Notes under the pieces: model-generated
Seen by the model: the letters and a program-made list of their open reading frames with translations, nothing else
What the model was told of the DNA's origin: nothing
Databases searched by the model: none
Program-made: the position numbers and the translations under genes
In this document: positions 1 to 9,124 of the stretch, in pieces
Numbering within the stretch: position 1 is the first letter of the stretch
Layout: every line of letters begins with the position of its first letter
Source of the DNA: a virus
Taxonomy: Duplodnaviria; Heunggongvirae; Uroviricota; Caudoviricetes
Reading direction: 5' to 3' (one strand)
Virus record (IMG/VR): IMGVR_UViG_2690316243_000002
DNA: 12,776 nt

Positions 1-25
1 AGCCACTGGATCGGTCAACTGATCC

Positions 26-5058: not shown

Positions 5059-5269
5059 TATTCACCTCTCGCAGCCTTACNNNNNNNNNNNNNNNNNNNN
5101 NNNNNNNNGTCAGATAAGTCAGAAGCCCCAGAAGCAGACTTCCCAGCACACCAATCGCAGCCCACTGTGATGGACTGACCTGATCCAACCACTGCAAAAA
5201 CCAGTAGCCGGCACTGCCGGCGGAGGTGCCGTAGGCAATGCCCGTTGAAATTTTGTCCATGGATTTCAT
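5058..5269 (-). CDS. S: pinholin S (S21-type), interrupted by an assembly gap
   Basis: N-terminus [45 protein letters not shown]... with the dual-start motif (M-K-S-M) and GGAGGTGAGG upstream. The C-terminal ...KAARGE plus TAA (5058-5060) is in a different phase because of the 28-N run, so the true length is unknown. Confidence 0.8.
5081..5108. other. assembly gap (28 N)
   Basis: Run of n characters in the sequence; it breaks the holin reading frame. Confidence 0.99.
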
Positions 5270-5413
5270 AGCCTCACCTCCGCAAATAACGGATGGCGTA
5301 GTTTTACACTGAGAAATGAAAGGGATTTGAAAAGAAAAAAACGCAAAAGCGGGCGAAACGATATATACAGTAAGGAAAGCACTGAGGNNCCCCCCGACAG
5401 ACCTGTGCTATCG

Positions 5414-5624: not shown

Positions 5625-6063
5625 CTACGGTCCTCCTCCCCGGAGGGGGGCATTTCATTATTTTTCTAATCGTTACTGGTGAGAAGGCGGAAGAAAAAGC
5701 CAGTTCTTCGCCCCTAAATAACAGCATGATTCCAGTCCATGCAAAATCTGATTTCCAGCTCACACATACCGAGCACTGTACAAAAAACCGCCAGCCAAGG
5801 CAGTTAAGAGTGTGTTCCCGGGGTTTGCTTAGAATATTTTGTAAGTTGTCCGAAGAGATATTTACAACACCAGAATGATGAATCATCAGTCCCCTGCCAG
5901 AGGTTCACTACGTAACCTGACCGACAATGCACCATTCTGGTGCTGAAAAAAGAGCACTGGAACTGCAACAAAACAACATCACAGAACAGGAGATGGTAAG
6001 GAGTCAGACATTCCCACACAATATTGTGTCAGTGCAAATAACAACCTTCGTCTCAAATCTCGC

Positions 6064-6138
<75 letters not shown>

Positions 6139-6141
6139 ATA

Positions 6142-6217
<76 letters not shown>

Positions 6218-6219
6218 GC

Positions 6220-6296
6220 TGGCCCACCACCGAGGACTCGAACCTCGCACCGTCAACTTAGAAGGTTGATGCTCTATCCGGATGAGCTAGTGGTGG
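6220..6296 (-). tRNA. tRNA-Arg (anticodon UCU)
   Basis: Reverse complement reads CCACCACTAGCTCATCCGGATAGAGCATCAACCTTCTAAGTTGACGGTGCGAGGTTCGAGTCCTCGGTGGTGGGCCA: anticodon stem TCAAC/GTTGA, loop CTTCTAA, T-loop TTCGAGT; unusual C1-G72 acceptor pair. Confidence 0.8.
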
Positions 6297-6297
6297 T

Positions 6298-6374
6298 TGG
6301 TGGCCCTTGCTGGACTTGAACCAGCGACCTGGCGATTATGAGTCGCTCGCTCTGACCAACTGAGCTAAAGGGCC
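6298..6374 (-). tRNA. tRNA-Ile2 (anticodon CAU, probable lysidine tRNA; Met not excluded)
   Basis: Reverse complement reads GGCCCTTTAGCTCAGTTGGTCAGAGCGAGCGACTCATAATCGCCAGGTCGCTGGTTCAAGTCCAGCAAGGGCCACCA: loop CTCATAA; the acceptor stem (C4, C5) and T-arm resemble host ileX rather than elongator tRNA-Met. Confidence 0.75.
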
Positions 6375-6383
6375 GGAGGCAGA

Positions 6384-6412
6384 ATAATAACCATATGTCA
6401 TCACATCTGCAA
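6384..6412 (-). promoter_or_regulatory. candidate sigma70 promoter of the tRNA array
   Basis: Minus strand: TTGCAG (6412..6407), 17-nt spacer, TATTAT (6389..6384); the predicted start falls a few nt upstream of tRNA-Ile position 1 (6374). Confidence 0.45.
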
Positions 6413-6460
6413 ACTCATCTGACCACCAGCACGTTTAACGTCCTGTGCCGTTTTTCAGGT

Positions 6461-6484
6461 ATAAAAAAACCCGCATAAAGCGGG
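6461..6484 (-). terminator. intrinsic terminator downstream of the second Q-like gene
   Basis: Minus strand GAGCCCGC-TTTAT-GCGGG followed by TTTTTTTATACC (plus cccgc 6470-6474, gcggg 6480-6484, A-run 6463-6469). Confidence 0.6.
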
Positions 6485-6563
6485 CTCTTTCAAATGTCCA
6501 TGTCTGCTATTCGCCTCGCGGTACAGCTTTGCGAAGCGTACAAGAATTGAAGCAGTTTTTACG

Positions 6564-7118
6564 TCAAAAAGCAATAACTTTTTTCTCTATACCAAAAGCC
6601 ATAACCATTGGTTTGTACAAAATAAATTCTGCCACCTTTAGCCAATGCTCAATGCGTCTTTCACAGGTTCTTAAACTCCATTTCGGGTGTGCATCATTCA
6701 GCAGTTCAGCCATTTTGCGTTTGGTCATCCCCCGCCCCTCATACCGTTGCCGAAGGACGCTAATCAATCCTGGATGCTCTGCCAGCACCTCACTTATGAC
6801 CCGATCAATACATAACGCCTCTGCATCAGTACAATGCGCCAGCCAGCTCTTTTGCTTACCGTTAATCATATCCCGCAAAAAAGCCTCAAGTTCAGACTTG
6901 TTCAGACCTGCTTTTTTCATCCTCCGGAGCGCCTCGTTAATTGCCGTTTTTGTCAGCTTTTTAGAGGTCAACATCAGGTTAAACATATTCCCCGTCTTAC
7001 CGCCACCAATATACGACCAGCGCCCCCACATACGTAGTTTTCCCTGAATCCAGACACTTTCCAGCGTGGTGAGACGAAGGTGTTCTCCGCTTTTTCCTGT
7101 ATTCGTTGGGTAAATCAT
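6564..7118 (-). CDS. putative late-gene antiterminator, Q-like (second, longer type)
   Basis: ORF 6564..7238; the preferred start is ATG at 7118 (MIYPTNTGKSGEHLRL...) with AGGAGG 7 nt upstream, overlapping the stop of the upstream ORF (ATGA). It shares a W-G-x-W motif (LRMWGRWS) with the QuuD-like protein (ERWGAWA) and sits directly upstream of a terminator, the tRNA array and the lysis genes. Family assignment is uncertain. Confidence 0.5.
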   Translation of the reverse strand: MIYPTNTGKSGEHLRLTTLESVWIQGKLRMWGRWSYIGGGKTGNMFNLMLTSKKLTKTAINEALRRMKKAGLNKSELEAFLRDMINGKQKSWLAHCTDAEALCIDRVISEVLAEHPGLISVLRQRYEGRGMTKRKMAELLNDAHPKWSLRTCERRIEHWLKVAEFILYKPMVMAFGIEKKVIAF

Positions 7119-7372
7119 AAATATCCCTCCTTTCTCCAGATTTCTTGTGTGCGAAAAACACCTTCTGCATGCATCAGGCGTAATTCTTCTTTGGTGTAAT
7201 CGCTGGTTTTTACCCGCCCGTCGATTAAATCGTGGCACGAGCTACAGGCAATCGCTGCCTGCATATCGTGTGGCTTTATCGCTGTTCCGCACGTTCCCGC
7301 CAGTCGGTAATGCGCCAGCACAGACGTTTCCGGATCGTGATTGCAGTAGCCAGGAATTCTGACGGTGCACAT
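7115..7372 (-). CDS. DUF1364 / YbcO-like Cys-rich protein, probably N-terminally truncated
   Basis: 85-aa ORF MCTVRIPGYCNHDPETSVLAHYRLAG...ACSSCHDLIDGRVK...; DUF1364-like motifs as recalled. An in-frame TGA lies at ~7402 with no upstream start, and the IS fragment abuts the 5' side. Confidence 0.55.
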   Translation of the reverse strand: MCTVRIPGYCNHDPETSVLAHYRLAGTCGTAIKPHDMQAAIACSSCHDLIDGRVKTSDYTKEELRLMHAEGVFRTQEIWRKEGYL

Positions 7373-7392
7373 CTGCCCCCGNTGAAAATCAA

Positions 7393-7623
7393 CTTTCGAT
7401 CAGTGAAGGCGCTTCCCGATTATCTCTTCCTGAAGGCACTTTAGGACAATGGGTTACCGCCGCCAGAAAAGGGCTCGGTACTCCTGGTTCCCGCACGGTG
7501 GCTGAACTGGAATCTGAAATTCTGCAACTGCGTAAGGCGTTAAATGAAGCTCGCCTTGAGCGAGATATATTAAAAAAAGCAACAGCGTATTTTGCACAGG
7601 AGTCGCTGAAAAATACGCGTTAA
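7393..7623 (+). pseudogene. IS3-family transposase OrfA, C-terminal fragment
   Basis: The frame is open from the truncation point to TAA at 7621-7623 and has no N-terminal start; it contains a helix-turn-helix remnant and a leucine-zipper-like segment. Confidence 0.6.
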
Positions 7624-7658
7624 TCGAACAATGGCGACAACAATTTCCCATTGAAGCG

Positions 7659-8477
7659 ATGTGTCAGGTATTTGGTGTATCCAGGAGCGGTTATTACAAC
7701 TGGGTACAGCATGAACCCTCAGACAGAAAACAAAGTGATGAGCGGCTAAAACTGGAGATTAAGGTGGCACATATCCGCACTCGCGAAACATATGGAACCC
7801 GGCGGCTCCAGACGGAGCTGGCAGAGAATGGCATCATCGTTGGTCGTGACCGACTGGCACGTCTTCGTAAGGAGCTAAGGCTACGCTGTAAGCAGAAACG
7901 CAAGTTCAGAGCGACTACGAACTCGAACCACAATCTGCCAGTTGCGCCAAATCTGCTGAACCAGACGTTCGCTCCTACAGCACCAAATCAGGTCTGGGTG
8001 GCGGACCTGACGTATGTTGCCACACAGGAGGGATGGTTGTACCTCGCTGGCATCAAAGATGTTTATACGTGCGAAATTGTCGGCTACGCCATGGGAGAGC
8101 GCATGACAAAAGAGCTGACAGGTAAAGCCCTGTTTATGGCGCTCAGGAGCCAGCGCCCACCTGCCGGGCTAATCCACCACTCTGATCGAGGTTCACAGTA
8201 CTGCGCATACGATTACCGGGTCATACAGGAGCAGTCTGGTCTGAAAACATCAATGTCGCGTAAAGGTAACTGTTACGACAACGCTCCGATGGAAAGCTTC
8301 TGGGGAACGCTGAAAAATGAGAGCCTGAGCCACTATCGTTTTAATAACCGGGATGAAGCCATCTCAGTAATACGGGAATACATTGAGATTTTCTACAATC
8401 GTCAGCGTCGTCACTCTCGTCTGGGGAATATCTCCCCGGCAGCCTTCAGGGAAAAATATCATCAGATGGCTGCTTAA
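7659..8477 (+). CDS. IS3-family transposase OrfB (DDE catalytic domain)
   Basis: 272-aa ORF with VWVADLTYV, HHSDRGSQY and YDNAPMESFW motifs (D, D, E); naturally expressed as an OrfAB fusion by -1 frameshifting at the A-run near 7572-7579. Confidence 0.9.
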   Translation: MCQVFGVSRSGYYNWVQHEPSDRKQSDERLKLEIKVAHIRTRETYGTRRLQTELAENGIIVGRDRLARLRKELRLRCKQKRKFRATTNSNHNLPVAPNLLNQTFAPTAPNQVWVADLTYVATQEGWLYLAGIKDVYTCEIVGYAMGERMTKELTGKALFMALRSQRPPAGLIHHSDRGSQYCAYDYRVIQEQSGLKTSMSRKGNCYDNAPMESFWGTLKNESLSHYRFNNRDEAISVIREYIEIFYNRQRRHSRLGNISPAAFREKYHQMAA

Positions 8478-8702
8478 AAAAAGAACAAATGGTAGTGTCC
8501 GCTATTGCCAGTACACCTCACACTCTATCCAACAAACCACCCACAGTTAATCGGAATAAAAGCAGAGTGCTTATGAATGATCGCACGCCCGAAGGTTAGT
8601 ATTTCTGCACAGCAATTTTGCAAAAAAAGGCGATCATTCATAACTTAAACGTCTTTCAGTCACTCCGGGATTTCCCATCATCGCAGACTGAAAGACTCTG
8701 AC

Positions 8703-8777
<75 letters not shown>

Positions 8778-8780
8778 ATA

Positions 8781-8856
<76 letters not shown>

Positions 8857-8858
8857 GC

Positions 8859-8935
8859 TGGCCCACCACCGAGGACTCGAACCTCGCACCGTCAACTTAG
8901 AAGGTTGATGCTCTATCCGGATGAGCTAGTGGTGG
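8859..8935 (-). tRNA. tRNA-Arg (anticodon UCU), copy 2
   Basis: Identical to 6220..6296 (offset 2639). Confidence 0.8.
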
Positions 8936-8936
8936 T

Positions 8937-9013
8937 TGGTGGCCCTTGCTGGACTTGAACCAGCGACCTGGCGATTATGAGTCGCTCGCTCTGACCAACT
9001 GAGCTAAAGGGCC
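8937..9013 (-). tRNA. tRNA-Ile2 (anticodon CAU), copy 2
   Basis: Identical to 6298..6374 (offset 2639). Confidence 0.75.
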
Positions 9014-9022
9014 GGAGGCAGA

Positions 9023-9051
9023 ATAATAACCATATGTCATCACATCTGCAA
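9023..9051 (-). promoter_or_regulatory. candidate sigma70 promoter of tRNA array copy 2
   Basis: Same TTGCAG-17-TATTAT element as 6384..6412, inside the repeat. Confidence 0.45.
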
Positions 9052-9101
9052 ACTCATCTGACCACCAGCACGTTTAACGTCCTGTGCCGTTTTTCAGGTA
9101 T

Positions 9102-9124
9102 AAAAAAACCCGCTCATCGGCGGG
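9102..9124 (-). terminator. intrinsic terminator downstream of the ORF6N-domain gene
   Basis: Minus strand CCCGC-CGATGA-GCGGG followed by TTTTTTTATACC (plus cccgc 9109-9113, gcggg 9120-9124, A-run 9102-9108). It shares the T-run and stem arms with the 6461..6484 terminator; only the loop differs. Confidence 0.6.

Follow-up and report, generated by a model that had tools for sequence, protein, structure and literature searches.

A DUF1133 gene related to phage 21 Q and its apparent place as a second Q gene in a draft prophage contig

Does a single lambdoid prophage carry two Q-like genes, the second of them beside a broken operon partner? This question is raised by a 12,776 bp stretch of DNA, referred to here as the window, which an exact-protein look-up identified as the whole of the public draft contig CXCY01000141.1 (GCA_001258795.1). 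The four N stretches of the window are all present in that record. In the preliminary description the gene Q2 was taken as a second Q gene of the prophage that carries Q1, its upstream partner ybcO (DUF1364) as cut by an IS fragment, and transcription of Q2 as possible only by readthrough from the Q1 side. The Q2 gene itself is ordinary and the unusual arrangement is most likely not real.

The minus strand carries every phage gene of the window. The features are listed in Table 1. The two tRNA arrays lie within two copies of a repeat of about 412 bp, 99-100% identical to each other, which comprises the 3' half of a terminator and tRNA-Ile2(CAU)/Arg/Thr/Gly. The first tRNA of each array (6298-6374 and 8937-9013) was called Met (CAT) by ARAGORN, and the identical gene is tRNA-Ile in RefSeq, a call of the lysidine-modified Ile2 type. 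Rare codons (AUA, AGA) are served by the array.

Reading of the sequence confirmed that Q2 encodes 184 aa from the ATG at 7118 with a strong AGGAGG ahead of it, as had been described. The start of Q2 overlaps the stop of the YbcO/DUF1364 ORF in the ATGA at 7118-7115. A W-G-x-W motif had been noted in Q1 and Q2 despite their differences; it is present in Q1 (WGAW) and Q2 (WGRW) and also in the Q protein of phage 21, Q21 (WGAW). The position of Q2 directly 5' of a terminator, tRNAs and lysis genes holds in the deposited sequence as well as in intact prophages and phages. The exact Q2 sequence was present in 3,743 blocks of a public assembly collection.

Table 1. Features of the window, with the isrK/C4 modules of three further loci in the last row
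Feature	Position	Strand	Remarks
DnaB-like helicase, then RusA, then Q1	above 10654 down to 10247	-	order from high to low coordinates
Q1, QuuD-like Q	10654-10247	-	PF06530, E=2.7e-52
Promoter-like site 3' of Q1	10242-10213	-	
c4-a1b1 targets	10219-10167	-	Rfam
isrK	10206-10130	-	Rfam, 77.5 bits
Terminator 3' of Q1	10151-10135	-	
C4 antisense RNA	10104-10021	-	Rfam
ORF6N antirepressor	9964-9203	-	
sRNA-Xcc1	9887-9804	-	Rfam
Terminator 3' of ORF6N	9127-9106	-	
Repeat of about 412 bp, copy 1	8702-9113	-	
tRNA array 1, four tRNAs	9013-8703	-	
Material extra to complete genomes, circularly permuted prophage-remnant piece	6475-8701		L072 and L073 run from 8702 directly into 6062
IS600 copy	7383-8531	+	about 120 nt of the left end absent, including the left inverted repeat and the orfA start
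Single N	7382		between IS600-internal and ybcO-internal sequence; present in CXCY01000141.1
ybcO (DUF1364), 5'-incomplete	7115-7381	-	starts at about codon 9; listed ORF from internal ATG 7372
Shine-Dalgarno AGGAGG	7126-7131	-	7 nt 5' of the Q2 ATG; read from sequence
Q2, intact DUF1133-family gene, 184 aa	6564-7118	-	ATG 7118, TGA 6566-6564
Candidate -35, TTGCTT	6569-6574	-	overlaps last Q2 codons; position-conserved TTGnnn in 32 of 38 loci
Candidate -10, TTCAAT	6546-6551	-	17 nt 3' of the -35
-10-like TACGCT, candidate sigma-dependent pause element	6535-6540	-	about +1 to +6
Predicted terminated leader of about 77 nt	6463-6539	-	ends in the intrinsic terminator
Intrinsic terminator, hairpin and T-run	6490-6463	-	read from sequence, folded, conserved across loci
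Repeat of about 412 bp, copy 2	6063-6474	-	
tRNA array 2, same four tRNAs	6374-6064	-	followed by lysis genes
Holin, lysozyme, Rz/Rz1, HNH, terminase, portal	below tRNA array 2 (6374-6064)	-	
isrK/C4 module after DUF1133	L005 3556-3780; L010 3556-3770; L065 6260-6530		alleles ending ...SSGDLKTVC or similar

The Q2 protein and its family

Q2 was assigned to the Pfam family DUF1133 (PF06576) with an E value of 2e-107 and 356.7 bits, the curated cut-off being 23.1 bits, and residues 1-176 aligned to positions 1-176 of the 176-position profile. It also passed the profile of the phage 21 Q family (PF06530) with 29.4 bits at a cut-off of 26 bits. An HMM comparison with the Q families of lambda, 21 and 82 had been proposed; Q2 matched that of phage 21, and no match to lambda Q (PF03589) or phage 82 Q (PF06323) was found in the Pfam scan at E<=0.01. 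The PHROG assignment of Q2 was PHROG 753, "anti-termination protein Q-like", with weaker matches to PHROG 79 and PHROG 943 which were common to Q1 and Q2. NCBIfam returned no model for Q2. The direct likeness of Q1 and Q2 is weak (hhalign probability of 75% over 69 columns).

The best PDB match of Q2 in a single-sequence phmmer search was Q21 (6P18, 6JNX; E=4e-4), and the match was colinear at both termini. A DUF1133 profile (alignment A4) was made up of 65 sequences from Escherichia, Salmonella, Klebsiella, Pantoea, Pectobacterium, Yersinia and others, reaching down to 36% identity. Searched against the PDB, this profile matched Q21 with an E value of 6.8e-10, and the next match, which was unrelated, had an E value of 0.0027. 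An AlphaFold2 model of Q2 built on the 65-sequence alignment had a mean pLDDT of 71, rising to about 90 over residues 100-175. A first run was set aside; it had used 34 sequences at >=72% identity and gave a pLDDT of 53.

The model was compared to the PDB using Foldseek. Clear homology of Q2 to an unrelated family had been named as the finding that would speak against a Q-like protein; instead the best 11 matches were all Q21 with a probability of 1.00, and the next match had an E value of 0.44. TM-scores between the model and Q21 were 0.53-0.58 by query length and 0.66-0.72 by target length. As in Q21, the modelled fold is all-alpha with a core resembling sigma region 4 and an N-terminal helix packed on this core. 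The residues of Q21 reported as DNA contacts are S93, K94, T125 and R127/R128, and in the alignment S93-K94 and T125-C126-x-R128 correspond to a conserved S/T-K and T-C-x-R in DUF1133. The preliminary view of Q2 as Q-like was thus upheld, Q2 being a DUF1133 protein homologous to phage 21 Q in sequence and predicted fold, as is Q1. Q2 is a divergent homologue of the Q21-type antiterminators, with antitermination as the function inferred from homology and synteny.

A single-sequence search with Q2 among 1.84 billion cluster representatives returned 70 clusters (50% identity), of which most were fragments; the Q21 family was not reached in this way. By cluster count the DUF1133 family is narrow. 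It has already been catalogued, and databases and one paper have labelled it Q-like by way of remote homology; the paper lists DUF1133 as "Q antiterminator (HHPred)" in 13 Stx phages. Several GenBank phage records name a DUF1133 protein Q, and the PGAP name is "DUF1133 family protein" only. A literature search found no experimental work on any DUF1133 protein.

The DUF1133 gene is very common in prophages of Shigella, E. coli and Salmonella. In annotated stretches of intact prophages and sequenced phages the gene order is DUF1367-YbcO-DUF1133, followed by tRNAs or toxin genes and then by holin, lysozyme, spanin and terminase. The Q position is taken by DUF1133 alone in the annotated stretches of loci L001 and L002 and of phages Rac-SA53 and vB_EcoS-683R6. 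Q2 itself is found in three complete-genome assemblies behind an intact DUF1367 gene, a YbcO gene of 96 aa and a nin-like region. The native setting of Q2 is a Rac-like lambdoid prophage in which DUF1367, YbcO and DUF1133 are followed by promoter, pause element, terminator, tRNAs and lysis genes. DUF1133 loci were also seen in contigs labelled Candidatus Nanosynbacter (a MAG; L011) and Vagococcus (L017), and these most likely represent enterobacterial contamination or mis-binning.

The joint at position 7382

The apparent break in the Q2 operon lies at a single N. On one side of it the PF07102 match of ybcO covers profile positions 11-91 of 92, and the first 9-11 codons or so of the full-length 96-aa gene are missing. 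On the other side stands the shortened IS600 copy, whose truncation was measured by BLAST against the IS600 of L001. The joint shows no IS end and no target duplication. The ybcO sequence is 100% identical to the intact gene in loci L053 and L057, and the IS600 copy is 100% identical to the IS600 located downstream of Q2 in the same two loci. The truncation of ybcO most likely marks a contig end and not a biological break, and the missing part of IS600 most likely a contig end inside a multicopy IS.

None of 5,426 complete E. coli genomes carried the ybcO/IS600 junction; a near search among them found no record spanning it, and an exact junction search in viral contigs returned nothing. The Q1 prophage was present in eight chromosome-sized contigs in the order DnaB-RusA-Q1-ORF6N-(one tRNA array)-holin-lysozyme-HNH-terminase-portal. 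The distance from ORF6N to holin in these contigs is about 1.2 kb, and no IS600, ybcO or Q2 lies between. Four of the eight were aligned to the window. Positions 12776-8702 and then 6062-5390 of the window were colinear with two loci (L072 and L073) at 99.9% identity by BLAST.

The order ybcO-Q2-terminator-tRNA-165 bp-IS600 is contiguous in three of the eight assemblies (CP104423.1, CP014099.2 and CP022455.1), about 1 Mb from the Q1 prophage. The remnant that carries Q2 there contains IS elements and has only tail genes downstream. Window positions 7381-6063 equal L053 5738-7056 and window positions 9113-7383 equal L053 6645-8375, both at 100% identity, and L057 is likewise 100% identical to both parts of the window. 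The L053 segment is permuted in the window around the common repeat of about 412 bp, with the N at 7382 as the permutation point. This pattern is the one made by a scaffolder walking a repeat node twice. Other Ns of the contig also stand at the edges of homology blocks.

A stretch of about 129 nt (5261-5389), which ends at an NN gap, replaces about 15 nt of the complete Q1-prophage genomes and resembles the sequence upstream of holin in a different type of prophage (L001). This is further evidence that gaps in the scaffold were filled patchily.

Comparison with related complete genomes indicates that the double-Q context almost certainly arose through an error in scaffolding the draft genome. 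The window is a short-read draft scaffold, in which a piece of about 2.6 kb from another prophage remnant of the same genome would have been threaded into the Q1 prophage at the terminator-tRNA repeat, circularly permuted and with its joint at the N. Scaffolding most likely produced the apparent second Q, the shortened partner and the lack of an early promoter alike. The cut in ybcO next to the IS fragment does exist in the deposited sequence, as described, but it coincides with the N and is contradicted by the complete genomes. The eight chromosome-sized contigs, with a Q1 prophage free of Q2, do not bear out Q2 as the second Q of one prophage, and a partner cut by an IS is at odds with the full-length 96-aa YbcO of the three complete-genome assemblies. 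Like these two views, the view that Q2 is reachable only by readthrough from Q1 rested on the N at 7382. As Q2 lies outside the Q1 prophage in the complete genomes that carry the Q2 remnant, about 1 Mb away, the question of such readthrough does not arise.

A rival to this explanation takes the arrangement as real. A circular or duplicated piece (tRNA-165 bp-IS600'...'ybcO-Q2-terminator) would have entered the Q1 prophage by recombination at the tRNA repeat, setting up a relay of two Q proteins in which polymerase modified by Q1 runs antisense through the IS remnant, so that Q2 is expressed and in turn works at its own promoter. The deposited contig does read in this order, a Campbell-type insertion of a circular piece would yield the identical order, and homologous recombination over about 412 bp at 99-100% identity is mechanistically easy. 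No strong minus-strand terminator lies between tRNA array 1 and Q2. Against this, the sole novel joint is an N, both partners end there at internal and non-canonical positions with neither IS end nor target duplication, and further Ns fall at the boundaries of homology blocks. The insert also corresponds exactly, after circular permutation, to a stretch found unbroken in related complete genomes, and none of the complete genomes examined has the arrangement. A real arrangement is considered improbable. The combined reading of Q2 as a real, intact DUF1133 gene of the Q21 branch in a context made by assembly is held with high confidence. The case calls for caution, as one N in a draft scaffold made an apparent double-Q prophage with a broken operon, a reading that would have been mistaken.

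Sequence elements downstream of DUF1133 genes

It had been stated that no convincing promoter follows Q2, the only candidate -10 being TGGTATAGA. The DNA 3' of the stop codon was read in 40 DUF1133 loci, one genome per species, which gave 38 distinct sequences. The arrangement TTGnnn-16/17-TnnnnT-4..7-TAnG[CA]T, followed by a terminator, was found in 32 of the 38 distinct loci from many genera of the Enterobacterales. Dinucleotide shuffles gave 0.01 expected occurrences of this cassette per set compared to the 32 of 38 seen, the 38 loci being related by descent and their cassettes not independent events. The end of the terminator T-run lies 53-101 nt past TAnG[CA]T, mostly 58-72 nt. Measured from the end of the stop codon, the -35 begins at positions between -35 and +5 nt. 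As the cassette shifts against the stop codon, coding constraint is no explanation for it.

Near-consensus pairs were present in Yersinia, Rouxiella, Edaphovirga and Serratia (for example TTGACT-16-TATGAT), and the arrangement is therefore read as a promoter. The counterparts of the -10 behind TTGACT/TTGACA in Yersinia, Edaphovirga and Serratia are TATGAT, TAAGAT and TAAATT, and in the E. coli and Klebsiella types (TTCAAT, TTGAAT) the -10 does not have the customary A as its second base. In the window this conserved -35/-10/-10-like arrangement overlaps the Q2 stop codon, contrary to the statement that no promoter is to be seen, and TGGTATAGA falls in an allele-specific stretch which is not common to other alleles. 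TAnGCT is predicted to overlap the transcription start, as does the pause-inducing element of lambda pR'. The Q2 cassette (6574-6463), followed by tRNAs and lysis genes, has the architecture of a Q antiterminator locus.

The last 35 residues or so of DUF1133 proteins (about 150-184 in Q2) are mosaic between alleles in alignments A2 and A4. The downstream -35 sits within the tail codons of DUF1133 genes, so that protein tail and promoter are inherited together.

The promoter spacers have a loose T[TG][GA]MGC..AAA pattern in common, and no clear repeat that could be a Q-binding element was found in them. The TGAGCA direct repeat, the binding element of Q21, does not occur in the -35/-10 spacer of the window (TTTGACGTAAAAACTGC). 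A protein as divergent as DUF1133 would be expected to recognise another site. In loci of the Klebsiella/Enterobacter type (L014-L016, L021-L026, L032, L013) TGAGCA, the exact Q-binding hexamer of phage 21, often occurs once in the -35/-10 spacer, some loci having TGAGCC or TGAACC. A second copy is located at about +25 in the leader of L014-type loci.

A 5' hairpin was predicted in most of the individual DUF1133 leaders, and RNAalifold gave no consensus leader structure across DUF1133 types. Rfam at gathering thresholds found nothing in the Q2 leader. A sub-threshold isrK-like match was found at 6537-6464 with an E value of 0.024.

Between the ORF6N stop and the terminator at 9127-9106, the minus strand at 9185-9150 reads TTTACGATCGTAAAAAG-TTGAAT-ATCCTGT-TAAGAG. 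This resembles a spacer, -10 and pause element of the DUF1133 type, although a TTG -35 and the final T are missing, and may represent the decayed remains of a DUF1133-type promoter.

By homology, Q2 would bind DNA in or near its own late promoter, the -35 of which overlaps the Q2 stop codon. It would load onto sigma70-RNA polymerase paused at TACGCT, at about +1, and would let the polymerase pass the terminator (6490-6463) to transcribe the tRNAs and late genes. The other possible role is that of a helix-turn-helix regulator resembling sigma region 4, which might for example activate or repress the adjacent promoter and would share no more than ancestry with Q21. The lack of functional data on DUF1133 in the literature and the bare PGAP name leave room for such a role, as do the missing minor-groove loop and the poor modelling of the nozzle-equivalent region, which is longer by about 31 residues. 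It fits poorly with the fact that the DUF1133 gene lies immediately upstream of promoter, -10-like element, terminator and late genes, which together define a Q cassette, that it alone takes the Q position in the annotated parts of two phages, and that its N-terminal WGxW helix and C-terminal tail are colinear with Q21. DUF1133 proteins that are regulators and not antiterminators are therefore an unlikely prospect.

A by-product of the analysis is a testable map of the cis elements 3' of DUF1133 genes, namely the stop-overlapping promoter, TAnGCT, short leader and terminator. With this map it could be asked whether the DUF1133 branch antiterminates like phage 21 Q.

Comparison with known systems

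Q21 (PF06530; PDB 6P18, 6P19, 6JNX and 6JNY) and DUF1133 are about 20% identical. Both have an N-terminal WGxW helix, a helix-turn-helix with S/T-K and T-C-x-R, and a C-terminal tail, and the gene of each lies directly 5' of a sigma70 promoter, a -10-like element and a terminator. The 13-residue minor-groove loop in the helix-turn[loop]-helix of Q21, which includes R113, is missing in DUF1133, where the alignment has a gap. In DUF1133 the first helix is separated from the core by about 31 additional, basic residues, in the place of the Q21 nozzle, and these were modelled with low confidence. The nozzle of Q21 enters the RNA exit channel. It is possible, if doubtful, that DUF1133 forms a structurally distinct branch of the Q21 type, with a nozzle larger by about 31 residues, an ordinary helix-turn-helix, loading at TAnGCT at about +1 and an IsrK-like sRNA leader of about 77 nt across the Enterobacterales; a real junction at 7382 with a two-Q relay is much less likely.

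The lambda pR'/qut region has an architecture like that of the Q2 cassette, with a promoter, a -10-like pause element over the transcription start, a short terminated leader and the late genes. The lambda Q protein and Q2 are not related in sequence or fold, and Q2 has no PF03589 match. The Q2 leader of about 77 nt is shorter than the lambda 6S RNA, which is 194 nt long.

The supposed late promoter and terminator of Q1 are the isrK promoter and terminator. The layout Q1-isrK-C4-ORF6N is that of the Gifsy-1 antQ-isrK-anrP locus (PMC4825925) and resembles the immI region of phage P1. In antQ-isrK-orf45-anrP of Gifsy-1 a Q-like gene is followed by a terminated leader of about 77 nt which doubles as an sRNA (PMC4825925). 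Against the Rfam isrK family the Q2 leader scored only 19.9 bits, under the isrK cut-off of 50. After some DUF1133 alleles (L005, L006, L010 and L065) an isrK/C4 module stands in place of the gene's own cassette, and an ORF6N antirepressor then follows in L010 and the related locus L065. One late leader is thus paired with at least three Q genes: Q1, Gifsy-1 AntQ and some DUF1133 genes.

As the Salmonella DUF1133 gene of L010 precedes isrK, C4 and an antirepressor, it was considered whether AntQ of Gifsy-1 is itself a DUF1133 protein. This was unsupported, the published antQ cloning primer encoding MNTQYLQ and not MIYPTNTGK.

Q1 and Q2 both belong to the Q21 family and both stand at the Q position of lambdoid prophages. 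Q1 is followed by the isrK/C4/antirepressor module, whereas Q2 is followed by its own short leader cassette, and in complete genomes the two genes are located in separate prophages.
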